Source of the DNA: an uncultured Pseudomonadota bacterium
GTDB taxonomy: Bacteria; Pseudomonadota; Gammaproteobacteria; Burkholderiales; SG8-39
Direction of reading: 5' to 3'
NCBI GenBank assembly: GCA_903834835.1
Contig: CAILKO010000008.1
Span: 82,684-146,683 of the forward strand
Length of the DNA stretch: 64,000 bases
Of the stretch, positions 4,017-47,190 are shown one piece after another. The notes beneath the pieces were generated by a model. That model ran no database searches. It was not told the origin of the DNA and saw nothing but the letters and a program-made list of their open reading frames with translations. How positions within the stretch are numbered: position 1 is the first letter of the stretch; every line of letters starts with the position of its first letter. A program made the position numbers and the translations under genes.

Positions 4017-4190
4017 GCCGAGGCGGATGAATACCGGTGAATTTGTTCACGGTCCAAGACAGAAAGAACACATCCTGCGCCGCGTTCGGTGCAGGATGCT
4101 TAACTTGCAGATCGCGTGCCGACTTCGGCGCGCGATGCCCAATCGGGCGCAGTCGTAGCAGCTGTGTGTGCAGCGCGAGGCCATAAAAAC

Positions 4191-13100: not shown

Positions 13101-16100
13101 GGAACGAGCACGGTCAGTTCCAAGGACGGCGCGATCGCCATCACCGGCATCGGCGGGCCGCTTGCGACCACCACCGGCGGATCGAACAACGTCGGGGTCA
13201 TCGTCTATACCGGGTCGGAAGTGAAGAGCACGGGGCTCGCCGTCATCGGTATCACCGGCACGGGCGGGGACGGCACGAACCAGAACCGCGGCGTGCAGAT
13301 CGACGTCGGCGGCAAGGTCACGGGCACCAGCACCAGCACCGGCAATATCACGATTACCGGTACGGGTACGGGCACGGGCACGGACAACTACGGCGTGCAC
13401 ATCACGTCGAACACCGCGGCCGCTTCGGTAATTTCCTCGGCGGGCACGGGTGCGATCAGCATCACCGGTACCGGTTCCTCGACCGGCACGAGCGACAACG
13501 TCGGCGTCGCGATCTCCAACACGACGGCGGGTGTCACCGGCTCGAACGCGGGTTCGCAGATCACGACGGCGCAGACCGGCGGCATCACCATCACCGGTAC
13601 GGGCCGCGGCACGACCAGCAACAACTACGGCGTGAGCATTGGCGGGGCGGCGCTCGTTTCGACCGCAGGCAACGGAACTGTCGCAATCACCGGTACGGGC
13701 AGCGCAACCGGCACCTCGGGCAACGCAGGCATCCTGCTCGCCAGCGACGCGGACATCACGTCGACCAAGTCCACGGCGGGCGCGGGCACGCTGACACTCA
13801 CCGGTACGGGCGGTGCGGGCAGCACGACGGACAATGCCGGTATCGTCATAACCGGCGCCGGTACGAGCATCGTTTCCTCAGTGGGCGCGATCGCCGCCAC
13901 CGGTACGGGCGCAGGCACGGGTGCCTCGGGCTACGGCGTGGCCCTTGCAAGCGGCGCGAAGATCCAGTCGACGAATACGGCGACGATCGGCGTAACCGGC
14001 ACGGGCGCTAACACCGCAGGCAACCTGCAGCAGGGCGTGCGCGTCGATGGCGCCACGATCACCACCGTCTCCGGCGACGTCACACTCGCGGGTGTGGCAA
14101 ACGGCTCGGGCACGGGCAGCGCTGGCGTGCTGATCGCGAATACAGGCAAGGTGGAATCGACAGGTTCCGCCGACCTCTTCATCACGGGCACGGGCGCCAA
14201 CGGCGCACCGGGCATCGCGAGCAATGACGGCACGACCACGGTCGGCACGAACACCATCGGCAGTGCGACGATGACCGGCGACGTGCTGCTGCGCAGCCTC
14301 GCCGGCACCGGCATCGCATTGACCAACGTGAACATCGTGACCCAGGCCGCAACCCCGGGTGCGGATGTGACGATCAATCTGGTCGGTGGGGGTAATGCCG
14401 TCCAGGTGACCAATTCGGGCAGCATCGTCGCCAGCGGCCTGCGCATCATCAACGACAGCACGACGAGCGCAGTCACGCTGGATTCGACCAGCAACAACGT
14501 CAACTTCCTCGCGGCCAACCTGACCGGGCTTGCCAGCACGCTCAGCTACACGGATTCGACGGGCTACGCGATCTCGACGCTCACCACGGACCATGACGCG
14601 AATTCGGGCAATGCGGACACAAGCACGAGCGGCCTGACCGTAGGTACGGTCGGGACCACGGCCAACACGATCCAGCTCACCGCAGGAGCCGCCGTCACGC
14701 AGAGCACCGCGTCGGACAACGTCACGACGGATGGGTTGAATCTGCTTGGCGCAGGCAACTACACGCTGACCAACATCGGCAACAACATCACGGTGCTGAA
14801 CGGCAACGTGACGACCTCGGGCACGAGCTTCATCAAGTTCACTGATACGAACAGCGTTGCAATCCAGCGTGTCGTCACGCCGCAGGCGGCGGGCAACAAC
14901 GTCACGATCACGGCGGGCGCGGGCGGCAGCGGCAGTATCACGGACTTCACGCCGGCCGGAACCGAAGGTTCCGGGAACGAGAACATCGTCACCCACACCG
15001 CCATCCTCAGCGCAGCGAGCGGCACGATCGGCGCCGCGACCGCCGATCCGGATCTCGACACGGATGCAGTGGTGCTGCGTGCGGCCACCACCGGCGCTGG
15101 CAATGGCATCTACATCACGGAAACCAACGACGTCCAGCTGGGCGACGCGACGAGCGGCATCAGTGCGGCCGGCGATCTTGTGATTTCGACCACGGCAGGT
15201 TCGATCACTACGACCACGACCGCCGCGAGCAGCATCGCCTTCGGCGGCAACGCGACGATCTCGGCCGGCGGCACAACCTCCGACCTGACGATCTCGACGA
15301 ACGTCGTCGGTACAGGCTCGGCGGGCAATACGCTGCGGCTGAACGCGGACAACAGTATCTTCGTCAATACCGGCGCGGATGTCAGCACCACCAACGCGAT
15401 GAACGTGGTGTTCAATTCCGACTTCGACGGCAGCGGTGCGGGCCGCATCAAGATCGGCAGCACGGCGGGCGGCGACGCAGGCAGCGTGATCACGAGCAAC
15501 GGCGGCAACATCACGCTCGGCGGTGGCAACGTCAACCCGGCGCTGAATGCTGCGCTCGGCACCTCGACGACCACCGCAGGCGTGGAACTCAGCAATGGCG
15601 CGCAACTGCAGGCCTCGACCGGGAATATCTCGATCCGCGGTCAGAGCGCGTCGGGCACCACGACTGTAGCCGGCGGCGGGGTCAACGTTCTGGGTGGCAG
15701 CATCGTCCAGACGACCACGGGCAGCATCACGATCGACGGCAAGGTCGATACCGCAGCCGGAACCTCGGCGGGCGTGCAGCTTGATGGCACGAACACCAAA
15801 GTGACCTCCGCGACCGGGAACATCGGGATCACGGGTTCGCACCTGGGTACGGCGACGGGTACGTTCAACCGCGGTATCGTCATGACGACCAACGCGGCGG
15901 TCGAGACCACCGGCTCGGGCACGGTGACGCTCACCGGCACGGGCGGCACGGGCGCGAGCGCGACCGACAACTACGGTATCCAGATCGCGAGCGGTGCGGA
16001 CGTCATCTCCTCGCAGGCAACGGCGGGCGCCGGCACGCTGACCCTCACGGGTACCGCGGCGGCCACGACGGGCGCGAGCAACGTGAACCTCGGCGTCTTC

Positions 16101-19100
16101 GTCACGGGCGCGGGCACGACGGTCACCTCGAAGGTGGGCGATGTCGCCATCACCGGTACCAGCAACGCGACCGGCACCGGCCAGTACAACATCGGCGTGC
16201 TTGTGGCGAACGATGCGATCGTCTCGACGACCGGCGTCGCAAACGTGACGGTCACCGGTACGGGCGCAGCAAGCACCGGCAAGAACGACTACGGCGTCGC
16301 GATTCTCGCTGACGGCAAGATCCGCAGCACGGTGGCGACCGGCAGCCTCGCACAGGGCACGATCACGATCAGCGGTACGGCGTCCGGTTCCGGCAATTCG
16401 GATGGCGGCGTCGCGCTTGGCAATGCGGACGGTCTTGTCACCGCCTCCGCTACAGGCGGCGACATCTCGTCCGTGGACGGCGCGATCAGCGTCACCGGTA
16501 TCAGCAACAGCACGGGTCTGAATGCCTACGGTATCGGCGCGAAGGAGAATTCCTCCATCACCTCGACCGGCATCGCGACCACCAGCCTGATCGGTACGGG
16601 CGGCACGGGCGCCTCCGGCACGAACTACGGCGTCTGGGTCCTCGATACTTCCGACGTCGTCAGTTCGGGTTCCGGCGCCACGACAATCACCGGCACGGGC
16701 CGCGGAACGGGCAACAGCAATACGGGTGTGGTGATCTCCGATGCGGGGACGACCGTCACGACGGTTTCCGGTCTGCTCACGATTGGCGGCACCAGCAACG
16801 CAACCGGTAGCGGCACAACCAACCGCGGCGTGTTGATCACCACGGCGGCCGATGTCATCAGCACCGGCTCGGGCAATATCGTCATCACGGGTACGGGCGC
16901 CACGACAGCCGGCAACAGCAACGAAGGTCTGACGATCGAATCCTCGGGCACCTCGGTGGACAGCCAGGGCACCGGCCTCATTACGCTGACCGGTACCGGC
17001 AACGGTACGGCCTCCGGCAACGTCGGCGTGGTCGTCAACACGACGGCACTCGTCACCTCTGTGACCGGCAACATCGGTATCACGGGCACCAGCGCGGCGA
17101 CGGGTACTGGATCGACCAACCACGGCGTGGATATCCTGGGCGGCGGCGATGTGACCAGCACCGGCGCGGCGAAGATCAACATCGTCGGCACGGGTGCGGC
17201 GACGAGCGGCTCGGGAAGCTACGGCGTGCTCGTGACCGGTACCGGATCCTCGGTGCAGAGCACTGCGAACAACGCGGCAGCGACCATCACGATCAGCGGT
17301 GACGGCTTCGGTACGGGTGGCTCGGCGAGTGGTGTCGTAGTCGAGAGCAGTGCGCTCGTGACGTCGCTTACCGGCAACATCGGCATTACCGGCGACAGCA
17401 AGGTCACGACGGGCTCCGGCAACAATAACTACGGCGTACATGTTGCAAGTGCAGCCGATGTCACGACAACCGGGGCGGCGACGATCACGCTGACGGGTTC
17501 TGGCGGCACGACTTCCGGCACGAACAACGAGGGTGTGTATATCCAGGGCACCGGCACGCCGGGACAGACGACCGTGACGAGCAGCGCAACGACCGGCGGT
17601 ACGATCACGATCGGCGGCACGGCGCGTGGCTCGGGCGGTACAGAGCGCGGCGTGGTGGTCGATGCGGGCGGTCTGGTTCAGTCGAAGGACGGCGCGATCG
17701 CGATCACCGGCACCAGCAGCGCATCGGCGGGTAACAACAACGTCGGTATCGTCGTTGCAAGCGGCGCGGACGTGATCAGCACGGGCATTGCGACGATCAA
17801 TCTGACGGGTACGGGTGCAGCAACGACCGGAACCGACAACTACGGTGTCTACCTGGCGGGTAATGCTTCTGCAGGCGGCACCTCGATCGACAGCCAGGCC
17901 AGTTCCTTGGGCGGCGCGATCACCATCGGCGGCACCGGGCAGGGTACGGGCGGCACCGAACGCGGCGTGTTCATGGACAGCTCCGCGCGCGTGACATCGG
18001 TGAGCGGCAACATCGGGATCACGGGCACCAGCTCCGCGACCGGCGGCAGCAACAACTCGGGTGTCGTCATGGCCACCAACGCCGATGTCATCACCACAGG
18101 TACGGCAAACGTCTCGATCACCGGCAACGGCGGGAACGTGGCCGCGGGCAGCAATCAGTACGGCATACAACTGCTCAGTGGCGCGGATGTGAAGTCGACC
18201 GGCAGTGCGGTCGGTTCGGGCACGATCCTGCTCGACGGCAACGCCGGCGCCGGCACCGACGACAACATTGGTGTGTACCTGACCGACATCGGTACGAGCG
18301 TCACCTCCGTACGCGGCAACATTACGCTTCTCGGTGATGCGGCCGTCGGCGGGACGCCGGGTACGGGCAACCGAGGGGTGGCGATCGAAAACACCGCTCT
18401 GGTTTCCTCGACCGCCCAGGCGAATATCGTTGTCACGGGAAATGGTGCGGCGGGTACGGCTGCCAACTACGGTATCCAGCTCGCGAACGGCGCGGACATC
18501 ACATCGTCCAGTACCGGGACCATCACGCTCACGGGTACCGGCGGCGCTGGCAGCGGAAATAACAACTTCGGTGTCGAAATCCAGAGCACGGGTACGACCC
18601 TCACCGCGGTGAACGGCAACGTGACGATCACGGGCACGGGTGGCGGAAGCGCGGCGACGACCAACAACTACGGCGTGAACGTGGAAGGCGCAGCCCTCAT
18701 CGAGACGAGCGGCACCGCGAGCATCGGGATTACCGGTACGGGCGGCACGACCACCGGCGGCAGCAACTACGGTGTCCGGGTTTCCGACGCAAGCACGACG
18801 ATCAGGAGCACGGCCACCGGCGGCAATATCACGATCACGGGCGATGGCAAGGGTTCGGGCGCATCCGAAACCGGCATCCGCGTCACGACCAGCGCGCTCG
18901 TCACGACAGTGGGCGCGGGCAACCTCGCCCTGGTCGGTACGGGTTCGACGACCGGCACGGGTACCAACTACGGTATCCAGGTTGACGGCGGGGCGGACAT
19001 CACGTCGACGAAGGCCACGGCGACGGCCGGGACGATTACGCTGACGGGGACGGGTGGCGGAACGACCGGCAGTAACAACTACGGTGTGTTCCTGACCGGA

Positions 19101-34520: not shown

Positions 34521-35417
34521 TCAGTAGCTTCTGCCCGACAGCACACGGGATTTTCCGAGCAGGCCCATGTCGTAGTCCACCTGGACGACGAACTGGCTTT
34601 TCACCGCCCGCCCTTCCAGCGATCCGGGGCTGAAGCGCGCCAGCCTGAAGGCTGCGACGGCGGACAGTTCGAACGCGCCCTGCGGCTTTGCGTCGATGAC
34701 ATTGACCGCATCGACCGTCCCGAACTCGTTGACGAGCACCTGCAGCTTTACGTAACCCATGATGCCCGGCGGCAATCCCGGATCGGGCGGCACGATATCC
34801 GAGAGCGGCAGGGCTCGCACGTCGAGTTCGGCCGGCAGGTAATAGCGCGGCGGCTGCAGCGCGTCGAGCGCCGCTAGGGCCACGCCATAGGCGGCGACAT
34901 TCTGGGTGCCAGCATCCCGGGTGATCGAACTCTGGCCGGCGAAGGCGCTGGTCGCTGTTGCTTCCGGTGCCGAGGGCTCGGTCGGGCCTGCTTTCAGAGC
35001 GGGGCGCACAGCGGCTTCGCTCTCGGGGAAGCGTTCCTTGGGCGTGTCGAGGTTTCTTGCACCCGGGGCCAGGCGTTCCATCGGCGCATCGGCGAGCCGC
35101 GTCACGAGCGGGCGCGCGAGGTCGATCTGCGGCGCTGCGCCGGGCATCGCCCTGAAACCGAAGACGAGCAGCGCGTGCACGAGCACGGAGAGGATCATGG
35201 CGCGGGCAAGCACCTGCTGCCCACGCGCTGCCGGGCGCTGTGCCGCAGGCGGCAGGAGGGTGCTGGACTCGGGTCCCGATGTGCCCCTCGCAGGCGCCTC
35301 GTCTGACTGCGCGCAGATGAGCGGCGCGTGCGAGGGCTCGGCGTACAGCGTGCGCCGCGCGAGGCCCCCGGGCAGGAAGCGATGCGCTGACATCCCGCCC
35401 AGTGCGAAATCGCTCAT
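34521..35417 (-). CDS. TonB C-terminal-domain-like membrane protein
   Basis: Part of ORF 34521..35648(-), trimmed to ATG 35417 so that it does not overlap pilY1. ATG 35393 is an alternative start. It has one TM segment (VLARAMILSVLVHALLVFGF), a Pro/Ala-rich linker and a C-terminal GYVKLQVLVNEFGTVDAVNVIDAKPQGAFELSAVAAFRLARFSPGSLEGRAVKSQFVVQVDY, which fits the TonB_C pattern. Confidence 0.6.
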   Translation of the reverse strand: MSDFALGGMSAHRFLPGGLARRTLYAEPSHAPLICAQSDEAPARGTSGPESSTLLPPAAQRPAARGQQVLARAMILSVLVHALLVFGFRAMPGAAPQIDLARPLVTRLADAPMERLAPGARNLDTPKERFPESEAAVRPALKAGPTEPSAPEATATSAFAGQSSITRDAGTQNVAAYGVALAALDALQPPRYYLPAELDVRALPLSDIVPPDPGLPPGIMGYVKLQVLVNEFGTVDAVNVIDAKPQGAFELSAVAAFRLARFSPGSLEGRAVKSQFVVQVDYDMGLLGKSRVLSGRSY

Positions 35418-35445
35418 GGTCTGAAAGGCCCGGTCGCGCGCACGC

Positions 35446-38400
35446 TTACTGCGTGATCTCGCGCCAGCTGATGCGCTTGCCGGAGGGCGGCGGAATGTCG
35501 AAGGGCGCGCCGATCGTGGTCTGTTTCGCGTCCGAGGTGGTAGTGATGACCACCGTCTTCCCGGAAGGCAGGCGCACGATGTTGAGACCCACCGCGAGCG
35601 AGTTCGAGAGGAACTGCGCAACCTTGCCGCCGGCGCTGTTCGCGACATGCTCGCCGGTGCCGTAGTTGAAGAAGTTCAGCCAGCTCGTGCCACCGATCGA
35701 ACAGGCATCGGTCGCGGGGATGTTGCTTGCCACGACGAGCGTACCGAGCTGCAGCTTCATATCCACGTTCACCCGCTCGCCGGTGAGCGGCAGATCGACA
35801 TACCAGCCCGCGGTGCTGTTGCACTGCGCGCTCGTGCCGGTGCAGCTGATGGTGCGCGTGGCCGAGCTGCCGGAGCCGACCTGGGCCATCGTCAGCGGCT
35901 TCAGCGAGGCGCGCAGATCCACGTACGGCGTGGTGCTGATCGGATCGACGATGCCGTAGATGCTCTGGGCAGTGTTGATGCTGAGGTCGGTCGAACCGAG
36001 CATCGACCCGGTGGCGACGAACACCATCGGGCTGCCGCCGGATTCTGCGAGTTCCGGCCGGGTCGTGATCGGCTGGTAGTTGAGACCGTTGCAGGTGCCG
36101 GTGCAGAGCTCCGCCACCTTGGTGGCCTCGCGGCCGCTCGGCGCAATCGTGTCGTTGATGTCGAAGCGCCACACATTGCCGAGCAGGTCGCCGCCATAGA
36201 CGCGGACGGTGCTGTTGTCGGCAAGCGTGTTCTCGACCCAGTTGTTGATGTGGTTCAGGCCGCTTGGCGTGGTTGCCGAGCCCGCCGTGGTGGCGATCTT
36301 GAAGTAGATCTTGCCGGTTGCGGCATCGAGCACGTAGAGATAGCCGAGTCCGTCGCCGGCCTTGGCGGGCGAATTCACGTTGTTGTAGCCCGAAGTGACG
36401 AGCACCACCCACTGCTCGGTGTCCAGCGCATCGATCACGCCATCCGAGTTGGTGTCCTTCACCCGCGCCTTGCTTAGTATCGGGTTGCTGAAGGTGTAGC
36501 CGATATGGCAGTCGGCGCCGCCCGTCGATGCGCGCGAAGCGGGGTTCGAGTCGTCATAGCAGGTGTCGCTCCACTTGAACTCCCACATCGCCTTGGGCGC
36601 TGCGGGCGTGGTGACATCGAGCGCGTAGTAGCCCTTGCCGCCGCCGTTCAGGCCGGCCACGAGCAGCGTTTTCCATTCACCGGCCGTGCTGTCGTAGAAA
36701 TCGCCCACCGACGGCGTGCCGTCGACCGAATACTGGTGGTTATTCGAGTAGTTCGTGTCGGCAAGCTTGTACAGGTTGGGCAATACCATGCTCGGGATGA
36801 AGGTCCAGGCTTCCTCGCCGCCCGTCGTATCGCTCGTGCTGGTGCCGGCGTAGAAGGCATGCAGCATGCCGTCGTTGGCTGCCACGAACACCATCGGCGT
36901 GCGCGTGGATTTCGCGGTCTTGTAGGCCGAGTAGCCCGAATCGGTGTAGCTCGCGAATGGCGCCTTCACGTACACCGGCTGCGCGTTCACGATGTCGCCG
37001 AGCACGTTCTCGCGCGTGCGGTAGAGCTTCGACTGGTCGTTCGCGACGAAGTTCTCGTAGCCGCGCTGGCCGCGCACATAGTTCACCATGTTCGCGCCGG
37101 CTGCAAGACCGCGCTGGTCCGCCGTCACGGGCGAGCCGGTGCCGTCGGTCATGCTGCCGTACTGGCTGAAGAGCGCCACCTTGCTGGAATTGAAATTTGC
37201 CTGCTCGGTCGCGTTCAGGTCGGTGACGGCCGTGCCCGTGGGGTTGCCCGAGACATCGCAGGTCTGCGTATTCCAGGTGAGGTTCGTGAGGTTATCCGTG
37301 GCGCCCGAGCGGAACAGGTAGATCGCCCGGTTGTCGCAGTAATTGCGCGTCCGCGCATCGAGCTTCGACTGGGCGGACCAGATGATCGCCGTCTTCACTT
37401 CGCCGGTCGAGAGGTCGATTTCATGCGCCTCGAGTTCGCCCGTCCACTTGGTGGTGACGTACTTCGCGGTATAGGCGAAGTTGTCCCCGGCCACCGGCTC
37501 CAGGTTCGACGTCGCCGCCGCTGCCGCCGAGGCGACCCGGGCGCTGATGCCGGCGAGCGCGTTCAGCAGGCCCGAGACCACCGAATCCGGATCCGCCGCG
37601 CTGAAGAACTGGCCGCGGCCGTTCACCGCGGCATGCCAGAGGTCGTCAAGCGCGGTGGGGTCGTCGTTCACAGGCACCGGCCAGAGCTTCGCGACCTCGC
37701 GCACATCCTGGAAGTCGCCCACGTTCGCGGTCTTGTAGTCCGAGCGATAGGTCAGCGTGCCGCTGAGGCCCAGACCCATCGTGAAGGTGGTCATGTGCTG
37801 CCAGTTGGCCGTGTCGGCCTCGGTGCCGGTGCCGCTCGTCGGCACGTTGTCAGTCATCGTGGGGCGCAGATCGGTGTTGTAGTAATAGGCCGCCACGTCG
37901 GCGAGCGAACCGCTGCTGCCGCCTGAGGGCGCGCTGGTGACGACCGTGCAGGGCCAGGCCGAGCACCCGGAGGGCGGGAAGGGCGGGGTCGAGGGGCCCG
38001 GCACGCCTGCTGCAGGCGGGGCCGGGATGCTGCGCGTCTGGTAGCAGATGCCGGTCACGTCCACCGGCGAACCCACCGTCGTGGTGGTGATCGGCGAGCC
38101 GACCGGCGCGCCGCCTGAGAGCAGCGTCGTGGCCACGGTGGTGGTGCTCGTATATTGGATTTTCCGTCCGGCGTTCGCGGTGCCGTTCTGGCATGTGACG
38201 GTGCGACCGCTGCCCGAGGACGCGGTGCAGGAATCGACTTCCACAAAGCCTGTGTCCGCCGTCTGGCAGGTGACCGTCGGCCCGCTGCCGGGGTTGGAGG
38301 CCGAGCAGGACGAGACGTCGACCCAGTTGGTATCCGATGCGACGGCGCAGGTGGTTGCGGTAAAGCTGTTGCCCGCGCCTGCCACGATGGGCGTACAGGT

Positions 38401-41400
38401 GCCGATGTTGGTCGGGCCGGTGGCGACCGTGTTGCAGGTGGTGGTGACCCAGGCATTGCCTGCGGCCGCTATCGCGGGCGAGCAGCTTGCGACCGGCACA
38501 TTGGTGGTCGTGGCGTTCGAACAGGTGGTGGCCGTCCAGGTGGGCGCAGTTGCGCTCACCGGCGAACAGGAGGAAACGCCGGTCGCGGCCTGGGTGTTCG
38601 GCCCGGCGGCGCAGCTTGTGGTGGTCCAGTTGGGCGCGGTTGCGGTCACCGGCGAGCAGGAGGACACCGCCGTGGCGGCCTGGGTGTTCGGCCCGGGCGC
38701 GCAGGTCGTGGTTGTCCAGGTGGGCGCAATCGCGGTCACCGGCGAGCAGGAGGACACCGCCGTGGCGGCCTGGGTGTTCGGCCCGGGCGTGCAGGTCGTG
38801 GTTGTCCAGGTGGGCGCAATCGCGGTCACCGGCGAGCAGGAGGACACCGCCGTGGCAGCGAGTGTGTTCGGGCCCGGCGTGCAGGTGACGGCGGTCCAGT
38901 TGGGCGCAGTCGCGGTCACCGGCGAGCAGGTCTGCACGGCCGTGGCGGCCTGGGTGTTCGGGCCGGGGGTGCAGGTAATCGTGGTCCAGTTGGGAGCAGT
39001 GCCTGTCTGGGCTGCGCAGGTGCCCGGTTGTACGGCCGCGGTGGCGAAGGTGTTCGGGCCGGGAGTGCAGGTAATCGTGGTCCAGTTGGGCGCGGTCTCC
39101 GTCTGGGCCGCGCAGGTACCGGCCTGCACCGCAGCCGAGGCGAAGGTGTTCGGCCCGGGCGCACAGGTGGTGGCCGTCCAGCTATTGCCTAGGCTCGCGG
39201 GCTGGCTCGATGGACAGGTGGTCGACTGTACAGCTGCCGTGGCAAAGGTATTCGGCCCGGCGGTGCAGGTTGTTACCGTTCGCGTGTTGCCGGAAATCAG
39301 CGTGCCGGCCGCACAGGTGGCAGGGTCCGCAGGGGCGGGCGTAACGGTGATGGTCCCCGCCACCACACCGGTATTGCTCGTCGTGATCGGCGCGGTGATC
39401 GAGGCGGTAGTTGTCGTGAGCGAGGCCGAGGTGATCGTCGTGCCGGATCCGAGCGGCGCCATGATCTTGATGTAGGTATCGGAGTTCGACAAACAGCTCG
39501 GGAAAGGCGTTGCAGCCGCGCTACAGGTGCCGCTGGCGGCGATTGTGTAGCTGTTCGTCAGTCCTGCAGCGACGATCGCGTTCTTCATGTTGAGTTTGCG
39601 CGAGACCCCGCCGCCGCCGCCGCTCGGCGTGGCGGTGATCGATGCGATGTTGAGACGGTCGACGCCGTTGATGAGAATGGCGGTCAGCACTGCGCCGCTC
39701 GAGACGTTGGTGAATACGATAGTGGCCGTGCCGTTGATCGTGGAGGTCGTGCCCTTGAGCGTCTGGGTCGCGGTCTTCATGGTCTGCGTCGCAGTCTTCA
39801 TGGTCTGCGTCGCGGTTTTCAGCGTCTGGGTACGCGTGTCCATGGTCTGCGTGTTGGTCTGCATGGTCTGCGTGCGGGTCTGCAGCGTCTGGACCTTGGT
39901 TTCCAAGGTCTGGGTGCGCGTCTCCAGCGTCTGCGCCGTGCTCTGGCGGATCTGGGCGGTGCTCTGCGTGTTCTGTATCGTGCGCCGCTGGACCTGCTGG
40001 GTGCGCTGCTGGCGCGCGGTGCAGGTGACGTTCGGGTTGTAGACGTTCGACTTGGTGGTGACGACCGAGGTGCCGTCGGAAGCGCCGTCCCACATCGGGG
40101 GCGGGGTCGCGGAATAACTGCCGTCCGCATTGCCGATCGCGCTCCCGGTGAGGTCGACCCCTGCATTGCCGTTCCAGTAGCCGTCGGTCGTCAGGATCAC
40201 GAAGTTCTGCTGGCAGGAGTACTGCATCGGGTCGTCCGCCATGCCGGAATTGATACCGTCCGTCTTGCCGGCGAAGTGACGACCGACGCGCGCGAGCGCC
40301 TCGCGGTTCGGCGTGCTGTTCGCGACCGTCTGGCTCGTGAGCTTGGAGAACCAGCTGGTCCTGTGCGCGGAATTGAAATCGTCGATCTTCAGGTACTTCG
40401 AAGAACTTACCGGGTTGCCCGGCGAGATCGTGACGAGGCCGACGCGGTAGCTGTCGGTGAGCTGGATGAAGGCGCGCGTGGCCGCGCTCTTCATCATCAT
40501 GATGCGCGTGCGGTAGTAGCTGTACCAGTTGGCGAAGTTCTGGCGCTCGTCGCTGCCGGCAATGCCCGACGTGGAATTCACGAGGACCTTGGTCCAGGTG
40601 CCCGGGTTGTTCAGGTCCACCATCGTCGTCGTAGCCTGCGGAACGCTGTTCACGAAGGCGCGTTCCACGGAGTAGATCGAGGTGGTGGTCGAGCCGCCGG
40701 CCGCTGTGCGGTAGATGCGGTAGCCGGTCGCCGGTACCGAACCGCCGTTGTCGGTGATGACGATCTGCACGCCCTCGCCGGCGGCAATCGCGACGGCGCT
40801 CGAGAGCGCGCTCGGCGCGGATTCGCCGATGTTGTTGAAGGCGGTGATCTGGTACTTGTAGTTGCCGGCGAGTCCCGCGGTATAGAGCGAGCCCGCGCTG
40901 GCGCCGACGTTGGTCAGCGTGAAGAACGGTGCGGGCGGTGCGAGCGTATCGGTGGCCGAACCGGGCGCGCTCTGCCCCGAGGCGGTGAACGGGCTTGCGC
41001 CGATGGTCTGGGTGCAGGGCGCGCCATGCCAGACGAGCTTCTGGCCGCCCGAGTAGGTGTAGTAGTAGGCGGCCTGCGCAGTGTCGTTGCTGCTGCCGGA
41101 GAGCGTGCTGGAATCGTAGGCGCGGAAACTTGCGGAAAGGTCTACCGTGGTGGCGGTGTTGACATAGCCGTCGTAGTAGGCGCCGGTAAAGCTCGGGGTC
41201 GGATAGTTCGTGCCGTCCGCCTTCTTCGGCAGCGTGTAGGTGCTGTTCGGGTTGTAGTACATCGAGTTGCAAATATTGTTCTTGTACCCGACCCTGGAGA
41301 TATGCCGCTCCTCGTCATCCGGCATGTGGCTCCAGGCCATCGAACCCGAGGTATCCATCAGATACATGATGTTCGGCTTCACCTGGGCCGAGGTCGAACT

Positions 41401-41544
41401 CGCGAGCGGGACGCTGGAAAGATCGGTCAGCGCGGCCTGGCTCAGCTGCGACCAGAGCAGCAGCCAGCAGAGCGCCACATGGGTGCTGGTCTTCCAGAAA
41501 CTGGCGGGCTTGCGTAATTCGGCGGTGTGCGTCGCGTTGTTCAT
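35446..41544 (-). CDS. pilY1: Type IV pilus tip-associated adhesin PilY1 family protein, unusually large (2,032 aa)
   Basis: It has a signal-like N-terminus and a vWA/MIDAS-like LMDTSGSMAW. The C-terminal PilY1-type region carries an EF-hand-like loop DTNSDGVID (36430-36456). It is positioned immediately after pilX in a minor-pilin operon. Confidence 0.85.
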   Translation of the reverse strand: MNNATHTAELRKPASFWKTSTHVALCWLLLWSQLSQAALTDLSSVPLASSTSAQVKPNIMYLMDTSGSMAWSHMPDDEERHISRVGYKNNICNSMYYNPNSTYTLPKKADGTNYPTPSFTGAYYDGYVNTATTVDLSASFRAYDSSTLSGSSNDTAQAAYYYTYSGGQKLVWHGAPCTQTIGASPFTASGQSAPGSATDTLAPPAPFFTLTNVGASAGSLYTAGLAGNYKYQITAFNNIGESAPSALSSAVAIAAGEGVQIVITDNGGSVPATGYRIYRTAAGGSTTTSIYSVERAFVNSVPQATTTMVDLNNPGTWTKVLVNSTSGIAGSDERQNFANWYSYYRTRIMMMKSAATRAFIQLTDSYRVGLVTISPGNPVSSSKYLKIDDFNSAHRTSWFSKLTSQTVANSTPNREALARVGRHFAGKTDGINSGMADDPMQYSCQQNFVILTTDGYWNGNAGVDLTGSAIGNADGSYSATPPPMWDGASDGTSVVTTKSNVYNPNVTCTARQQRTQQVQRRTIQNTQSTAQIRQSTAQTLETRTQTLETKVQTLQTRTQTMQTNTQTMDTRTQTLKTATQTMKTATQTMKTATQTLKGTTSTINGTATIVFTNVSSGAVLTAILINGVDRLNIASITATPSGGGGGVSRKLNMKNAIVAAGLTNSYTIAASGTCSAAATPFPSCLSNSDTYIKIMAPLGSGTTITSASLTTTTASITAPITTSNTGVVAGTITVTPAPADPATCAAGTLISGNTRTVTTCTAGPNTFATAAVQSTTCPSSQPASLGNSWTATTCAPGPNTFASAAVQAGTCAAQTETAPNWTTITCTPGPNTFATAAVQPGTCAAQTGTAPNWTTITCTPGPNTQAATAVQTCSPVTATAPNWTAVTCTPGPNTLAATAVSSCSPVTAIAPTWTTTTCTPGPNTQAATAVSSCSPVTAIAPTWTTTTCAPGPNTQAATAVSSCSPVTATAPNWTTTSCAAGPNTQAATGVSSCSPVSATAPTWTATTCSNATTTNVPVASCSPAIAAAGNAWVTTTCNTVATGPTNIGTCTPIVAGAGNSFTATTCAVASDTNWVDVSSCSASNPGSGPTVTCQTADTGFVEVDSCTASSGSGRTVTCQNGTANAGRKIQYTSTTTVATTLLSGGAPVGSPITTTTVGSPVDVTGICYQTRSIPAPPAAGVPGPSTPPFPPSGCSAWPCTVVTSAPSGGSSGSLADVAAYYYNTDLRPTMTDNVPTSGTGTEADTANWQHMTTFTMGLGLSGTLTYRSDYKTANVGDFQDVREVAKLWPVPVNDDPTALDDLWHAAVNGRGQFFSAADPDSVVSGLLNALAGISARVASAAAAATSNLEPVAGDNFAYTAKYVTTKWTGELEAHEIDLSTGEVKTAIIWSAQSKLDARTRNYCDNRAIYLFRSGATDNLTNLTWNTQTCDVSGNPTGTAVTDLNATEQANFNSSKVALFSQYGSMTDGTGSPVTADQRGLAAGANMVNYVRGQRGYENFVANDQSKLYRTRENVLGDIVNAQPVYVKAPFASYTDSGYSAYKTAKSTRTPMVFVAANDGMLHAFYAGTSTSDTTGGEEAWTFIPSMVLPNLYKLADTNYSNNHQYSVDGTPSVGDFYDSTAGEWKTLLVAGLNGGGKGYYALDVTTPAAPKAMWEFKWSDTCYDDSNPASRASTGGADCHIGYTFSNPILSKARVKDTNSDGVIDALDTEQWVVLVTSGYNNVNSPAKAGDGLGYLYVLDAATGKIYFKIATTAGSATTPSGLNHINNWVENTLADNSTVRVYGGDLLGNVWRFDINDTIAPSGREATKVAELCTGTCNGLNYQPITTRPELAESGGSPMVFVATGSMLGSTDLSINTAQSIYGIVDPISTTPYVDLRASLKPLTMAQVGSGSSATRTISCTGTSAQCNSTAGWYVDLPLTGERVNVDMKLQLGTLVVASNIPATDACSIGGTSWLNFFNYGTGEHVANSAGGKVAQFLSNSLAVGLNIVRLPSGKTVVITTTSDAKQTTIGAPFDIPPPSGKRISWREITQ
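38190..39290 (-). repeat. Cysteine-ladder tandem repeat (87-90-nt period) inside pilY1
   Basis: There are eight clear units of T-C-(T/A)-(P/A)-G-P-N-T-x-A-x-x-A-V-x(1-3)-C-x8-10-W-T-x-x-T, followed by degenerate Cys-spaced units. Copies 38651-38740 and 38741-38830 differ at 1 of 90 nt. Confidence 0.85.
39754..39984 (-). repeat. Eleven tandem 21-nt (heptad) repeats inside pilY1
   Basis: In protein order the units are RTIQNTQ, STAQIRQ, STAQTLE, TRTQTLE, TKVQTLQ, TRTQTMQ, TNTQTMD, TRTQTLK, TATQTMK, TATQTMK, TATQTLK. Gln at position 4 is invariant. Confidence 0.85.
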
Positions 41545-41601: not shown

Positions 41602-42210
41602 TCAGTACATGATCGTCTGTACGTAGCTGATGGTATTTCGGGGGCCCACGATGCGGCTCGTGATGCGGAAATAGGGCTGTACGGTATTCGACAGCGGCAG
41701 CACGCCATAGGCGCCGCCGCCCTTGGAGCCGCCCGAGCCGGTGGAGCCGATGGTCACGCACTGCTGGTTCGGATCGTTGACCGCCAGCCCGGCCGTATTG
41801 CACAGGCGGTGGATCACGTACTGGACCTGGTTGCCGGTGCCGTCGTCGGAGGTGACCTGAAAGGAGTTGGAGGTCCCCCAGCTGTAGGTAGTGGGGTCGA
41901 AGCTCGTGTCCCAGCTCGAGTAGTAGCCGGAACCGCCGGCGTCGACCTGCAGCGTGGCGGAGCCCTGGCTCACCAGCCAGCCGCGCGCGGCCTCGATCCC
42001 CAGATCGCCCACCGAGGTGGCGTTCGACTTGAACGAAAGGTTGCCGGCGATGACGATGCCGGTGCTCACCTGCCGCATCATGGCGATGCCTGCGAGTGTC
42101 ATCACGACGAGCACGATGAGCGCGATGAACAGCACCACGCCGCGCTCGCGGCGCAGCGCCGGCCTGCGAGCCGGGACAGGAACCCGGACGGGAACAGGGT
42201 TGCGCGTCAC
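41602..42210 (-). CDS. pilX: Type IV pilus minor pilin / assembly protein PilX
   Basis: Part of ORF 41602..42471(-). I chose the GTG at 42210, which overlaps the pilW stop (GTGA). RERGVVLFIALIVLVVMTLAGIAMMR is a PilX_N-type segment, and the C-terminus ..YFRITSRIVGPRNTISYVQTIMY is typical of PilX. Confidence 0.75.
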   Translation of the reverse strand: MTRNPVPVRVPVPARRPALRRERGVVLFIALIVLVVMTLAGIAMMRQVSTGIVIAGNLSFKSNATSVGDLGIEAARGWLVSQGSATLQVDAGGSGYYSSWDTSFDPTTYSWGTSNSFQVTSDDGTGNQVQYVIHRLCNTAGLAVNDPNQQCVTIGSTGSGGSKGGGAYGVLPLSNTVQPYFRITSRIVGPRNTISYVQTIMY

Positions 42211-43304
42211 GGTGCGGTCCCCCAGATGATGTTGCGCAGCGGAATCACTTTTTCGTAGACGCGGTAGCGGTAATGCTGCCAGTCGAGCGTCGTATCCGCG
42301 GGGCGGGTGGTGCCGTCGCTGCCGTCGATGTTGGTCATCGTGAAGGCACCGCCCGACCAGCTCGGCGCGACGGTCGTGATCGCATCCTTTTCGTACTGCT
42401 GGCTGCGCGCGAGCAGCGCGACGCGGATCGCGCGCAGTTTCGACCAGTCCGCCGGGGGGGTATTGGTCCATTCTCCGGTCGCGATCGCGTTGTCGTTGTC
42501 GCCGTCGACACCGTATTCCGCCTGCAGATTGACGATGCCTTCGGCGACATCGTAGGCGGTCGTCGGCGTATTCAGGAAGTCGGACCAGGTCAGCACATTG
42601 GTGCGGACCTGCCAGATATTGAGCTTGGGCCCGGTGCCCAGGTTGTACAGGCTGCCGGAGGTGTAGACGCCGACTGTCCCCGCGACCTGGTTGTAGGTCG
42701 CGGTGGTGGCCTGATTCCTGTAGTTCACATAGGCGCCGGGCAGGTGACCGACTGAAAGACCATCCGTAAAGGGTGTCCCGTCCGTGTTGTCATTTGCCGT
42801 GATCTCGACCAGATCGCACGAAGTCGGTGTGCCGCCCGCCACGATGACGAGATCGCCCTTCTGGATGCCGGTGCGCCCGCTCTGGGTCCTTTTCGATGTC
42901 GTCGTGGCGGACGTGAAATTCTGCGTTGCGGTGAAGTAGGCGGAGTTGCCGTACAGGATGTTGATCTGGTCGGGCGTGCCGGATGCGCCGTCGATGATCT
43001 GGACCGGAAAGAATCCGAACGTGAACACGCCGCGGGTGGTCGCGTTGACGTTCACCGTGCAGCCCATGTGCGTGGCCAGGCCGAAGCCGTAGCCGGCAAG
43101 CTTGAGATCGCGCTCGAGGTTGAACATCGCGATGGTGCCGGCGATCTGCGCGTCGCTGCCCGAGGAGGTCGTGCGTTTGCGCGCTTCCCAGATCGACAGC
43201 GACTGGAACACCACGACGATGCCGATGAGGCCGATCACCACGCCGACCATGATTTCGATCAGCGAGAATCCGGACTGTTTGCGCAGGGAAAGGAGCGGTG
43301 TCAT
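42207..43304 (-). CDS. pilW: Type IV pilus minor pilin PilW
   Basis: 365 aa. The N-terminus MTPLLSLRKQSGFSLIEIMVGVVIGLIGIVVVFQ is a prepilin-type leader and methylation motif. Size and position (between pilV and pilX) fit PilW. Confidence 0.8.
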   Translation of the reverse strand: MTPLLSLRKQSGFSLIEIMVGVVIGLIGIVVVFQSLSIWEARKRTTSSGSDAQIAGTIAMFNLERDLKLAGYGFGLATHMGCTVNVNATTRGVFTFGFFPVQIIDGASGTPDQINILYGNSAYFTATQNFTSATTTSKRTQSGRTGIQKGDLVIVAGGTPTSCDLVEITANDNTDGTPFTDGLSVGHLPGAYVNYRNQATTATYNQVAGTVGVYTSGSLYNLGTGPKLNIWQVRTNVLTWSDFLNTPTTAYDVAEGIVNLQAEYGVDGDNDNAIATGEWTNTPPADWSKLRAIRVALLARSQQYEKDAITTVAPSWSGGAFTMTNIDGSDGTTRPADTTLDWQHYRYRVYEKVIPLRNIIWGTAP

Positions 43305-43310
43305 GGCCGA

Positions 43311-43823
43311 TCAGTTGATGAAGGTCACGACGGTATGGCGCCGGGCGACCAGATCGTTGGGCGCCTGCCAGCAGATCGTCACGCTGACCTTGTTGTAGGC
43401 CGCGGCGGTGGAGTCGATCGCCACCTGGAGCATGCTGGCGCTGGTGCCGGGCAGGCGGGTTCTGCCAGTGGTGACCGTTCCGACCCAGTCCGTCACCTGC
43501 TGGGCGGTGGAAGCGGCCCCGGTGAAGCGGCAGTTGGAGCCCGAGGCCTGATGCGCGAACGGCGCGAGCGAGGTCTGGATCGTGGTCGCGCTCGTGCGGT
43601 CCACGTTCAGGGCGATTTCGCTCGCGATCTGCTCGGCGCGGTTGGCCGCCTCGACGCGGTACTGGGCATCGGCCTGGGCGGTGATGGCCGTGGCCTGCAT
43701 CGCCACGAGGGCCAGGATGCCGATCGAAAAAATCAGGATGCCGACCAGCGCCTCGAGCAGGAACATGCCGCGCTGCCGGTGCTGCGGAGAACCGCGCAAG
43801 CTGCGCGAGCCGGGGCTCAGCAT
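43311..43823 (-). CDS. pilV: Type IV pilus minor pilin PilV
   Basis: Part of ORF 43311..43862(-). Start is at ATG 43823 (MLSPGSRSLRGSPQHRQRGMFLLEALVGILIFSIGILALVAMQ), about 170 aa. It overlaps the fimT stop. Confidence 0.75.
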   Translation of the reverse strand: MLSPGSRSLRGSPQHRQRGMFLLEALVGILIFSIGILALVAMQATAITAQADAQYRVEAANRAEQIASEIALNVDRTSATTIQTSLAPFAHQASGSNCRFTGAASTAQQVTDWVGTVTTGRTRLPGTSASMLQVAIDSTAAAYNKVSVTICWQAPNDLVARRHTVVTFIN

Positions 43824-44431
43824 CTGCGCGTGTCTCCGACGGTCGTGACTGCGGGATCGCACATCTTGACCTGGCCGCCGACGGATACCACGACGTTCAG
43901 GCAGCGCATCGGCCCCGTGGGGGCGCAGCTCCCGCCCGCCGGATCGGTGAACGCAAAGGTCGCTGCTGCGCCGAGCGTCGTCATGCCGAAGCCGTTGAAG
44001 GTCACCGTGGAAATGCCGCCCGTGTCGATCTGTACACCGGTCGTGGTGCTGCTGCCGGCCGCGCCTTCGGAGTGGGTCTTGCCTTCGACGAACTGAAAGG
44101 TGCCGCCGGTCAGTGGCTGGCGCACCATCCAGTTCTTCGCGCTCGCGGCGATATTGGTGGTGTTCTGGTTGAAGGAAATCGGCTCATCCGTGGTCAGGAC
44201 GAACTGCATCTGCGAATTTGCACGCACCGCTTCGGCGCGCGCGCGCTGCAGGCCGGCGTAGAACCCCTCCGCCGTCGCCCGCAGCTTGGCGTTGTGCAGG
44301 TAGCTCGACAGCGAAGGCATGCCGAGCATCATCAAGATGCCGATCAGCGCGATGCCGATCATCAGCTCGACGAGCGTGAAGCCGCGGGCCGCTCGCCCGC
44401 GGACAATCCTGTGGGAACTGCCGCTCAGCAC
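43817..44431 (-). CDS. fimT: FimT/FimU (GspH-domain) type IV minor pilin
   Basis: Part of ORF 43817..44653(-). The upstream part of that ORF overlaps pilE, so I chose the GTG at 44431. ARGFTLVELMIGIALIGILMMLGMPSLSSYLHNAKLRATAEGFYAGLQRARAEAV is a prepilin leader plus GspH/FimT-like helix. Confidence 0.7.
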   Translation of the reverse strand: MLSGSSHRIVRGRAARGFTLVELMIGIALIGILMMLGMPSLSSYLHNAKLRATAEGFYAGLQRARAEAVRANSQMQFVLTTDEPISFNQNTTNIAASAKNWMVRQPLTGGTFQFVEGKTHSEGAAGSSTTTGVQIDTGGISTVTFNGFGMTTLGAAATFAFTDPAGGSCAPTGPMRCLNVVVSVGGQVKMCDPAVTTVGDTRRC

Positions 44432-44871
44432 GAACCATCCTTCTTCAGCACCCAGCAGCTGTTGCCCTGGCCCGACCAGCCCGAGGGCAGGCCCAGCGTG
44501 CGGCGCGTGTTGAGTTCGTTGATCGTGTACTGGAAGTTCGCCATGCTGTTGATGCCCTGGGCGGTGACCGTGTAGGTCGTCGCCGCAATCGTGCAGGAGA
44601 AGGTGAAATTGCTGGTCGCCGTCGGCACCGGGGCAACGGTGGCCGGCTGGCACGCGCCTGTGTAGAAGCGGTTGTCCTGGAAGTACTGTTCGAGCTTGAC
44701 GCGCATGTCGAGCAGGTTCGAGGTGGCTTCGGTGATCTTGCCGCGCCGCACGTAGTCGGTATAGGCCGGCACCGCGATCACGGCCAGGATGGAGATGATG
44801 GCGACGACGATCATCAGTTCGATGAGCGTGAAGCCGCGAGACGGGAGCAGTCGCTGGAGTTGTGTTTTCAT
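44425..44871 (-). CDS. pilE: PilE-type type IV pilin (minor pilin)
   Basis: Start at ATG 44871: MKTQLQRLLPSRGFTLIELMIVVAIISILAVIAVPAYTDYVRRGKITEATSNL. There is a C-terminal Cys pair (..NSCWVLKKDGSC). 148 aa. Confidence 0.8.
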   Translation of the reverse strand: MKTQLQRLLPSRGFTLIELMIVVAIISILAVIAVPAYTDYVRRGKITEATSNLLDMRVKLEQYFQDNRFYTGACQPATVAPVPTATSNFTFSCTIAATTYTVTAQGINSMANFQYTINELNTRRTLGLPSGWSGQGNSCWVLKKDGSC

Positions 44872-44894
44872 TTTCCGGGCCCTTTGTGGATTGA

Positions 44895-44923
44895 ATGGTA
44901 TGCAGTGCGTAGGCGTTTGCGAA
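44895..44923 (-). promoter_or_regulatory. Candidate sigma70-type promoter of the minor-pilin operon
   Basis: On the minus strand: TTCGCA (44923-44918), a 17-nt spacer, then TACCAT (44900-44895), about 25-50 nt upstream of the pilE ATG. The -35 element lies inside the palindrome TGCGAA-G-TTCGCA (44918-44930). The match to consensus is weak. Confidence 0.3.
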
Positions 44924-44929
44924 CTTCGC

Positions 44930-44940
44930 ATGACGAACGG
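44930..44940 (-). promoter_or_regulatory. AlgR-type box CCGTTCGTC(AT), proximal copy
   Basis: The minus strand reads CCGTTCGTCAT, 59-69 nt upstream of the pilE ATG and just upstream of the candidate -35. It is an exact match to the 9-mer core I recall for P. aeruginosa AlgR sites. Confidence 0.35.
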
Positions 44941-45091
44941 CGCTGGCGCGGGCATGAGCGGCGTACCGGCAGGCCCGACGAGTGAACTATTGCACACTTC
45001 GGGGGGCAGGGCAGCGCTCAAGCAGTGCTGCGCAACGGTCCCGAAGGTTCCGCGCAGGTGCCGTCAGCACCTGCCTTGCGCCGAAGATACC

Positions 45092-45700
45092 TCAGCGCGG
45101 CGCGTACGGGCCCTTGGGTGCCGCCGGGCTCGCTTCAGGGGTCACTGGCCGCGCAACGGGCGCTTTCTCGGCGCGCTCGGCTTCGGTGGCATAGTCGTCC
45201 GGTATCGCCGGTGCCGGCTGGCTGCGTGCGGGGAGCAGTCCTTCGCGCGGGTAGCCGGCGCTGTCGAGCAGCGTGTCGTATTCGGACTGGGCAAAGCCCT
45301 TGTAGACCGTCTGCCCGACGGTGAGGACCGGAACTTCATTGCTGCCGGAGATCTGCTTCAGTTTCTCGTTCGACTCCTGATCCCAGACCTGGACCTCCTT
45401 GAACGGAATGCCGCGCCGATTCAACGCGTCGCGCGCGAGCTTGCAGGGTGCATCGCAGCCCGGCGAGCTGTAGAGCGTGACCGGGAAATTGCGCGTCACC
45501 TGCTCGATGACGAACGGGGTCGCCGGGGTCGCCGGGGCGGTCTGTGTGCCGAGGGCCTCGCGCTTCTGTATGTTGCGCGCGCCGGCGGGCGGGGGCGTAT
45601 CGGTGAGATGCACCCGCCCGCGTTCGTCGGTCCAGCGATAGAGCTGAGCACTTGCGGCGCAAGTCCATCCGAGTAAGACGATGATCAGGTAGCGGCGCAT
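45092..45700 (-). CDS. Secreted DUF4124 + glutaredoxin-like domain protein
   Basis: 202 aa. It has a signal peptide (MRRYLIIVLLGWTCAASA) and a DUF4124-like LYRWTDERGRVHLTDTPPP. The glutaredoxin-like part is VTLYSSPGCDAPCKLARDALNRRGIPFKEVQV...VPVLTVGQTVYKGF. The Cys pair spacing is C-x3-C rather than C-x2-C. Confidence 0.65.
   Translation of the reverse strand: MRRYLIIVLLGWTCAASAQLYRWTDERGRVHLTDTPPPAGARNIQKREALGTQTAPATPATPFVIEQVTRNFPVTLYSSPGCDAPCKLARDALNRRGIPFKEVQVWDQESNEKLKQISGSNEVPVLTVGQTVYKGFAQSEYDTLLDSAGYPREGLLPARSQPAPAIPDDYATEAERAEKAPVARPVTPEASPAAPKGPYAPR
45507..45517 (-). promoter_or_regulatory. AlgR-type box CCGTTCGTC(AT), distal copy
   Basis: The identical 11-mer CCGTTCGTCAT occurs on the minus strand about 640 nt upstream of the pilE ATG, inside the glutaredoxin-like coding region (codons ..PFVIE..). 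Confidence 0.3.
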
Positions 45701-47114: not shown

Positions 47115-47190
47115 GCCGGAATAGCTCAGTTGGTAGAGCAGCGCATTCGTAATGCGAAGGTCGTAGGTTCGACTCCTATTTCCGGCACCA
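47115..47190 (+). tRNA. tRNA-Thr (anticodon CGU)
   Basis: 76 nt, folded by hand. Acceptor GCCGGAA/UUCCGGC; D arm GCUC-AGUUGGUA-GAGC; anticodon arm GCGCA-UUCGUAA-UGCGA (27-43 is a G-A mismatch; anticodon CGU); variable loop AGGUC; T arm GUAGG-UUCGACU-CCUAU; discriminator A and an encoded CCA. Confidence 0.92.

Follow-up and report, generated by a model that had tools for sequence, protein, structure and literature searches.

The locus described here is a pilY1 gene on the minus strand of a 64,000-nucleotide (nt) stretch of contig CAILKO010000008.1, from an uncultured Burkholderiales bacterium (this stretch is referred to below as the window), and the question that it raises is how the additional length of its product is built and whether that build is peculiar to this gene. 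PilY1 acts at the tip of the type IVa pilus as an adhesin and, it is proposed, as a force sensor, and published work on it covers proteins of about 1,000-1,500 amino acids (aa); the reading frame at 35446-41544 has 2,032 codons plus a stop. A preliminary description, made from the letters of the DNA, had read the gene as a PilY1 adhesin of about double the usual length with an unusual stack of inserted modules. The protein belongs to a widespread long subfamily of PilY1, in which a module of helix and cysteine ladder is inserted at the neck of the protein, and we propose, as somewhat more likely than not, that this module forms an arm. For the gene itself this is modest news, as it is a typical member of that subfamily with two lineage-specific additions; what seems worth keeping is a 1:1 rule linking the two repeat arrays, together with the arm model, a compact domain without known relatives, and the additions themselves, a fibronectin type III (FN3)-like domain and an EF-hand-like loop.

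The gene encodes a PilY1 family protein with two insertions

The encoded protein was identical to one held in a public collection (P0001, from a 154-kb contig), and by sequence it is a genuine type IV pilus tip protein of the PilY1 family. Pfam PF05567 (PilY1 propeller) matched residues 1515-1867 (E 1.7e-37), and the sole solved relative, PilY1 of Pseudomonas aeruginosa (Protein Data Bank (PDB) entry 3hx6), was matched at E 7e-37, and at E 4e-73 in a profile search. These matches and the synteny of the operon agree with the initial assignment of the gene as a pilY1 that closes a minor-pilin operon, and the reading frame, motifs and repeats listed at that time were all found again at the same positions. 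The nearest named relatives were metagenome-assembled genomes of Burkholderiales and Rhodocyclales.

The closest short relatives are 1,238-1,280 aa long and 66% identical to the query, and the longest of these, P0010 (1,280 aa), aligned with query residues 15-190, 315-529 and 1120-2032, the gaps thus defining two query inserts at residues 191-315 (insert 1) and about 506-1229 (insert 2). About 126 aa of insert 2, here called the neck, are also present in the short relatives, and the additional length, first put at about 900 aa, comes to about 720 aa beyond the nearest short relatives (125 plus about 598). The extra modules do come after an N-terminal head and before the C-terminal propeller region, and in the order first given for them. 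The parts of the gene are as follows, all on the minus strand.

35446-41544, minus strand: pilY1 coding sequence, 2,032 aa (open reading frame (ORF); identical to P0001)
41434-41544, minus strand: probable Sec signal peptide, residues 1-37, ending in LSQA ahead of ALTD (by inspection)
40975-41433, minus strand: N-terminal head, part one, residues 38-190, with a DxSxS motif of MIDAS (metal ion-dependent adhesion site) type (conservation; AlphaFold2 (AF2) model)
40600-40974, minus strand: insert 1, an FN3-like domain within the head, residues 191-315 (PHROG 752; HMMER; Foldseek)
40030-40599, minus strand: N-terminal head, part two, residues 316-505, with STPxREAL and ILTTDGYWN motifs (conservation; AF2)
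39748-40029, minus strand: strand of the neck (residues 506-524) followed by the array of Gln/Thr heptads (about 525-599) (Tandem Repeats Finder; AF2)
39370-39747, minus strand: predicted compact alpha/beta domain, residues about 600-725 (AF2; relatives)
38191-39315, minus strand: cysteine ladder, residues 744-1118 (Tandem Repeats Finder; Cys spacing)
37858-38190, minus strand: neck beta region and Pro-rich linker with CxAWPC, residues 1119-1229 (AF2; alignment with short relatives)
35446-37857, minus strand: conserved PilY1 C-terminal region, residues 1230-2032 (PF05567; 3hx6)
35944-37002, minus strand: Pfam propeller, residues 1515-1867 (PF05567)
36430-36456, minus strand: EF-hand-like loop DTNSDGVID, residues 1697-1705, in a 14-aa propeller insertion

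Insert 2 combines heptads, a predicted compact domain and a cysteine ladder

Insert 2 opens with Gln heptads that are encoded by a 21-nt tandem array at 39758-39944 (Tandem Repeats Finder) and lie in a run of 89 residues (509-597) free of Pro, Gly and Cys. AF2 predicted a long strand at residues 506-524 (predicted local distance difference test score (pLDDT) about 80), followed by a single long helix at residues 530-599 (pLDDT 43-68); coiled-coil matches in Pfam and NCBIfam at residues 510-600 (E 0.03-1) were judged compositional and set aside. The Thr/Ala/Ser-rich stretch reported to follow the heptads is indeed present (residues about 606-724), but rather than a mere compositional stretch it is predicted to be a compact alpha/beta domain (pLDDT about 90), which is kept in 12 relatives and has conserved Cys at residues 674 and 684. 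No match to this domain was found in Pfam, PHROG or the PDB, and its profile returned nothing from the PDB at E <0.4.

The cysteine ladder of more than 350 aa that had been noted proved to hold 26 Cys, spaced by a median of 15 residues, across residues 744-1118, forming about 13 two-Cys units of 26-34 aa in which the Cys and the aromatic (W/F/Y) positions are strictly periodic. It is encoded by a 90-nt tandem array (38522-39092; 5.3 copies, 86% matches, score 634 in Tandem Repeats Finder). AF2 left residues 726-819 unstructured (pLDDT about 30) and placed one short strand per 30 residues over residues 822-1064 (pLDDT 50-65). Long strands were then predicted within residues 1061-1159 (strands at about 1090-1157, pLDDT about 77), and after residue 1159 comes the Pro-rich linker, in which the C, W, P and C of CxAWPC are invariant or nearly so in relatives.

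The insert-2 model as a whole had a mean pLDDT of 61 and a predicted template modelling score of 0.41. It gave nothing at E <2 against the PDB with Foldseek, the ladder sequence gave no match against the PDB with phmmer, and no genuine match to insert 2 was found in Pfam, NCBIfam or PHROGs. Together with a content of Thr, Ser, Ala and Gly of 55%, the want of Pfam and PDB matches and the low AF2 confidence over much of the insert would suit a flexible linker, that is a largely unstructured and possibly glycosylated, mucin-like tether whose repeats have no defined fold. We regard such a tether as improbable, as the Cys and W/F/Y positions recur with strict periodicity, most relatives have an even number of Cys, the prediction is confident at residues 606-724 and 1061-1159, Pro and Gly are excluded over 89 residues of the heptad region, and the stoichiometry of helix and ladder is conserved, as set out in the next section.

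Heptad number follows ladder-unit number across the subfamily

Relatives in this analysis are the 120 best-scoring proteins, a ranking that favours long ones, and in 68 of them Gln heptads precede a ladder with 8 or more Cys that lie 13-16 residues apart. Helix length was taken from the longest stretch without Pro, Gly or Cys, and the number of ladder units as half the Cys count; these stretches replaced an earlier measure, identity at positions i and i+7, which had fragmented the heptad arrays (rho 0.50). In the query, 12.7 heptads stood against 13 ladder units (ratio 0.98). Over the 68 proteins heptads and units were correlated with a Pearson r of 0.92, a slope of 0.91 and a median ratio of 1.08, and over 30 clusters formed at 70% C-terminal identity the values were r 0.95 and slope 0.95. 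Where close pairs of proteins differed by at least 2 units, the helix changed in the same direction in 43 pairs, in the opposite direction in 3, and was unchanged in 12. A close relative, P0002 (2,380 aa, 84% identical), and another protein of its cluster, 2,401 aa long, had 22 units and 18.4 heptads, compared with 13 and 12.7 in the query, and thus repeat number varies between near relatives. This rule of about one heptad per ladder unit across the subfamily is new here. As the heptad and ladder arrays are separate in the gene and yet matched in count, selection for matched lengths is implied.

Mis-assembly or expansion of the tandem repeats in this metagenome-assembled contig had been raised at the outset as a case that would undo the architecture, and we find it very improbable indeed as an explanation. 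It could draw on two adjacent 90-nt units that are 99% identical (38659-38838, minus strand, residues 903-962) and on the ladders of relatives P0062 and P0039, which look assembly-collapsed. The other ladder units of the query are just 71-86% identical in DNA, however, the frame is open through 6.1 kb, the ratio of heptads to units is close to one, and the architecture is seen again in dozens of assemblies made independently, contigs of 0.2-1.7 Mb among them. The 99%-identical pair points to either a very recent duplication or a short-read miscount by one unit, and because of this pair the unit count of the query could be off by one.

A side arm is favoured over a stalk in series

The matched counts can be given a structural reading, and we infer that helix and ladder lying side by side is the simplest one. 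By textbook values, one heptad of helix rises by about 10 Å and two beta rungs by about 9.6 Å. The two-part repeat module is inserted at the neck, where the N-terminal head meets the C-terminal propeller region; in the proposed arrangement the helix would run outward from the neck, the alpha/beta domain would sit at the far end and make the turn in the query, and the disulfide-stapled ladder would return beside the helix, each two-Cys unit matching one heptad. The beta-sheet neck would hold the arm at both of its ends. Such an arm would be stiff and about 10-13 nm long in the query, and roughly 6 to >40 nm in relatives, its length changing by gain or loss of repeats, and it would present a second putative binding domain at a distance from the pilus tip.

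The preliminary description had instead placed a stalk between propeller and head, with heptads, middle domain and ladder following one another in a line to make a rigid spacer that would lift the von Willebrand factor type A (vWA)-like head far above the pilus-anchored propeller. In primary sequence the modules do lie between head and propeller, the regular spacing of the Cys suggests a stapled, stiff element, and the length of the insert is highly variable, as in the stalks of fibrillar adhesins. A serial arrangement gives no reason, however, why heptads and units should track each other 1:1 over 30 lineages, and the flanks of the insert are contiguous in the short relatives and are predicted to be long beta strands, which suggests a single site for the entry and exit of the insert. 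We therefore think the serial stalk unlikely, if still to be taken seriously, and favour the out-and-back arm because the heptads track the ladder units about 1:1, a co-variation which fits a side arm better.

Several points weigh against this arm. The packing of helix on ladder and the pairing of the neck strands come solely from secondary structure and repeat counts, and AF2 confidence was low over the helix, the ladder and residues 726-819 (pLDDT values as given above). The heptads offer one hydrophobic position each, and they would hence form no classical coiled coil. The measure of helix length by Pro/Gly/Cys-free runs is a heuristic, and the ratios of 1.2-1.9 in query-type relatives are inflated because the run includes the neck strand. 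The relatives entering the count are not phylogenetically independent, the ratio in P0002 is 0.84, and in P0062, P0039 and P0036 the helix is as long as in their relatives while the ladder is much shorter. P0022, P0039 and P0062, which have one 188-aa helix region in common (at residues 400-587 of each protein), have ladders of 52, 36 and 24 Cys. With P0036 they form the chief exceptions to the 1:1 rule; the short ladders of P0062, P0039 and P0036 may be collapses of repeats in metagenome assembly.

If the arm with its tip domain is real, these pili would carry two spatially separate binding sites with a length-adjustable reach, which could affect the formation of flocs and biofilms. 

The long architecture is common among uncultured Betaproteobacteria

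The combination of inserts, at first thought unusual, was found to be widespread, as heptads and ladder occur together in the 68 relatives counted above and several of these share the order of modules. P0004 and P0006 have the order of the query, with heptads, a domain marked by INGVxRL...YxxIMxP, a ladder and a Pro-rich CxAWPC, and in alignments of P0002-P0013 and P0028 the same compact domain separates the heptads from the ladder. In Accumulibacter-type relatives the middle domain is missing and the helix passes into the ladder within 5-18 aa by a CTPGGNIxC turn. Among the 120 relatives, 48 are longer than 2,000 aa, the longest having 2,994 aa; insert 2 ranges from 94 to 1,680 aa with 2 to 88 Cys, a number that rises with length and is mostly even, and ladders have up to 84 Cys. 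Homologues of about 2,000 aa, whose existence as common and already characterised proteins had been named as a possible objection, thus proved common, but no characterisation of them was found.

Read from these alignments, the query is a typical member of a large long-PilY1 subfamily, to which an FN3-type domain and an EF-hand loop have been added, and the subfamily with heptads and ladder is, as far as found, undescribed but common in uncultured Betaproteobacteria. A large environmental group of Betaproteobacteria, including the wastewater phosphate-removing Accumulibacter, makes PilY1 proteins that reach about 3,000 aa and are built around a repeat module whose length follows an internal rule.

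One relative, P0003 (1,870 aa), has an extra small domain at residues 1177-1238 in its C-terminal half (Pfam E1_FCCH, E 1.5e-7) that the query does not have, which by its Pfam match is another sign of modular insertion in the long-PilY1 family. Matches of 8.4 kb in Iodobacter were considered as giant (2,800-aa) PilY1 proteins of cultured strains and rejected, since the one locus that was read (L012, Iodobacter violaceini) holds two tandem pilY1 paralogues of about 1,100 aa each (9926-13369 and 17188-20427), each apparently with its own minor-pilin set. Similarly long match spans were seen in L010, L014 and L025.

Comparison with described PilY1 proteins and with antigen I/II

The protein resembles P. 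aeruginosa PilY1 (PA4554; C-terminal domain, 3hx6) and the PilC/PilY1 family in its propeller and in being encoded by the last gene of a fimU-pilVWX-type operon, and it resembles P. aeruginosa PilY1 further in the DxSxS of the N-terminal head and in a conserved extreme C-terminus. In the query and its relatives this terminus reads GKRISWREI, and the PilY1 extreme C-terminus has been proposed to pair with PilX by strand complementation (PMC13190605). The query differs in being about 870 aa longer, with the insert of helix, tip domain and Cys ladder and the FN3-like insert, and in having its EF-hand-like loop elsewhere in the propeller, in a lineage-specific insertion.

Extended, cysteine-rich PilY1 proteins have been reported in Myxococcota (clades 1.5-1.7), where the Cys were read as disulfide stabilisation of extended extracellular domains (PMC13190605, 2026). 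The query is like these in an N-terminus with vWA-like motifs and a propeller, in additional length and in additional Cys. The median Cys count in those clades is 30-41 (PMC13190605), against 45 in the query and >90 in its longest relatives. According to the same paper, vWA and DUF4114 are the sole conserved domains known from the N-terminal parts of published PilY1 proteins, and the words repeat, helix and stalk are absent from its text (PMC13190605).

Other counterparts are the long PilC/PilY proteins of Candidatus Accumulibacter and other Rhodocyclales and Burkholderiales metagenome-assembled genomes (such as P0016, 2,533 aa; P0041, 2,994 aa) and that of Denitratisoma oestradiolicum (P0064, 1,617 aa), which are 45-62% identical to the query over the aligned parts. 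Their insert lies at the same site, and in it the heptads come before a ladder whose Cys are 13-16 aa apart. They differ from the query in mostly having no tip domain, so that the helix turns directly into the ladder, and in having neither the FN3-like insert nor the EF-hand insertion. They are annotated solely as PilC/PilY family, and no functional study of them was found in the literature; likewise, no description of the helix/ladder module of PilY1 was found, in a search that did not extend to most subscription journals, so that an earlier description may exist.

A resemblance of another kind is to streptococcal antigen I/II, in which N-terminal alpha-helical and C-terminal repeat regions associate into a stalk that projects the V-domain head (PMC3178794). 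By analogy with antigen I/II (SpaP, SspB, AspA), the query likewise appears to have two count-matched repeat arrays flanking a compact domain. The return strand of antigen I/II is a Pro-rich polyproline helix, whereas that of the query is a Cys/Thr-rich unit that is probably beta, and the anchor of antigen I/II is the cell wall, whereas that of the query is the pilus-tip propeller. No Pfam match to the antigen I/II families was found in the query, and its return array has no comparable Pro repeats; the query is, by this comparison, not a member of antigen I/II, and the resemblance would be one of design, without sequence similarity. We suggest tentatively, and with rather less than even confidence, that helix and ladder together make an undescribed disulfide-stapled composite rod, with a ladder unit for each heptad, that would project a new small binding domain from the type IV pilus tip. 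Its length (about 6 to >40 nm) would be tuned in evolution as repeats are gained and lost in step in the two arrays, and the rod would be a convergent counterpart, in Gram-negative pili, of the antigen I/II stalk. Such a rod would bear on the reach of a retracting pilus and on the passage of force to the mechanosensing head.

The head has vWA-like motifs, and the EF-hand-like loop is a lineage-specific addition

Both ends of the protein had been taken as canonical, and this holds only in part. At the N-terminus, residues 1-37 have a charged n-region, a hydrophobic core and the sequence SQA before A, and the motif A.AALTD.S..PLASS is kept in relatives. The LMDTSGSM motif lies where it had been placed, at residues 61-68 (41341-41364), and its D63, S65 and S67 (41344-41358) are invariant or nearly so in 52 relatives. 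The MIDAS pattern DxSxS...T...D is present, with D63-x-S65-x-S67, STPxREAL and ILTTDGYWN all invariant or nearly so in relatives, and AF2 modelled head residues 38-190 confidently (pLDDT >90) as an alternating beta/alpha fold. Pfam VWA_2 matched the query weakly (E 0.031, over 24 residues only). No vWA domain was found at significance in Pfam or NCBIfam, in PDB profile searches or among the top 50 Foldseek matches, and an hhalign comparison with an approximate integrin I-domain sequence aligned the beta1 strand alone, at a probability of 0.3%. The vWA head as first proposed was thus not recovered by hidden Markov model, PDB profile, Foldseek or hhalign comparison, and the assignment rests on the conserved motifs and on the confident alternating beta/alpha model.

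At the C-terminal end, the loop DTNSDGVID was found at residues 1697-1705 (36430-36456), as reported. It lies within a 14-aa insertion that occurs only in P0001 and P0002 among the 120 relatives and that falls opposite a gap in the alignment with P. aeruginosa PilY1. The Ca site of P. aeruginosa, DNNSDGVAD (D851-D859), aligns instead with query ENTLADNSTVRV, which has no EF-hand pattern, and the clade consensus at that position, DNTxVNNTTLRVYG, is not EF-hand-like. An EF-hand-like Ca site is common in the PilY1 family, but neither universal nor defining (PMC13190605).

Insert 1 resembles a phage virion domain

The FN3-like stretch noted near 40.8 kb, AGNYKYQITAFNNIGESAPS, corresponds to residues 226-245 (40810-40869) and lies within insert 1, and PHROG and Foldseek results agree with that reading. 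Residues 191-315 matched positions 295-413 of the 475 of PHROG 752 (major head protein) at E 1e-15. An exhaustive HMMER search with insert 1 against 1.84 billion representatives gave 227 matches at E<=1e-3 (23 at E<=1e-10), most of them 450-510 aa in length and having the domain around residues 280-420; the four matches that were scanned (453-512 aa) were all full-length PHROG 752 proteins, and the remaining matches include multi-FN3 phage tail and virion proteins. Foldseek against the PDB returned the SPO1 capsid (9vel, E 2.6e-4) and then an FN3 domain (1va9, E 0.016), and against BFVD the best matches were phage major capsid proteins (E 4e-5 to 7e-5); the pLDDT of insert 1 in the head model was just 60-73. 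By profile and by model, insert 1 is a domain of the phage-virion-decorating type, homologous to a surface domain of major head proteins. It is alike in sequence and fold to the FN3/Ig-like virion domains of phages (PHROG 752; SPO1 Gp6.1, 9vel), but the copy in the query interrupts a bacterial pilus adhesin, within its head, and not a capsid protein. Among the 120 relatives insert 1 was seen only in P0001, P0002 and P0003, with a partial copy in P0104, and was absent from 116.

Operon setting and other genes of the window

Directly upstream of pilY1 and on the same strand are genes whose products have N_methyl with GspH, PilW and ComP_DUS domains (Pfam) and, by motif, a PilX-type N-terminus. 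The order of minor-pilin genes and pilY1 was identical in at least 18 related betaproteobacterial loci (L001-L018, L022-L025). The upstream minor-pilin set (41602-45021) consists of the following maximal ORFs.

41602-42471, minus strand: pilX (N-terminal motif)
42207-43304, minus strand: pilW (Pfam)
43311-43862, minus strand: pilV
43817-44653, minus strand: fimT/U-type pilin (GspH Pfam domain)
44425-45021, minus strand: pilE-like pilin (ComP_DUS; Pfam)

Directly upstream of this operon, at 45092-45700 (minus strand), the window encodes a protein with DUF4124 and glutaredoxin domains. Its candidacy as a dedicated redox partner of the 45-Cys PilY1 was judged unlikely, because no such gene was found by tblastn beside the operon in 28 related loci. 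Immediately downstream of pilY1 is a gene with a TonB C-terminal domain (34521-35648, minus strand), whose maximal ORF overlaps the 3' end of pilY1, and whose true start is therefore probably later; a similar TonB-domain gene follows pilY1 in L004, L005 and L007.

The only tRNA of the window is a tRNA-Thr (CGT) at 47115-47190 (plus strand). At 4116-21398 (plus strand) lies an ORF of 5,760 aa whose residues 82-328 match a two-partner-secretion (TPS) domain (E 1.3e-37), predicted from this domain to be a giant exoprotein of the filamentous-haemagglutinin type, and a 689-aa ORF just upstream of it (1947-4016, plus strand) may encode its TpsB partner.

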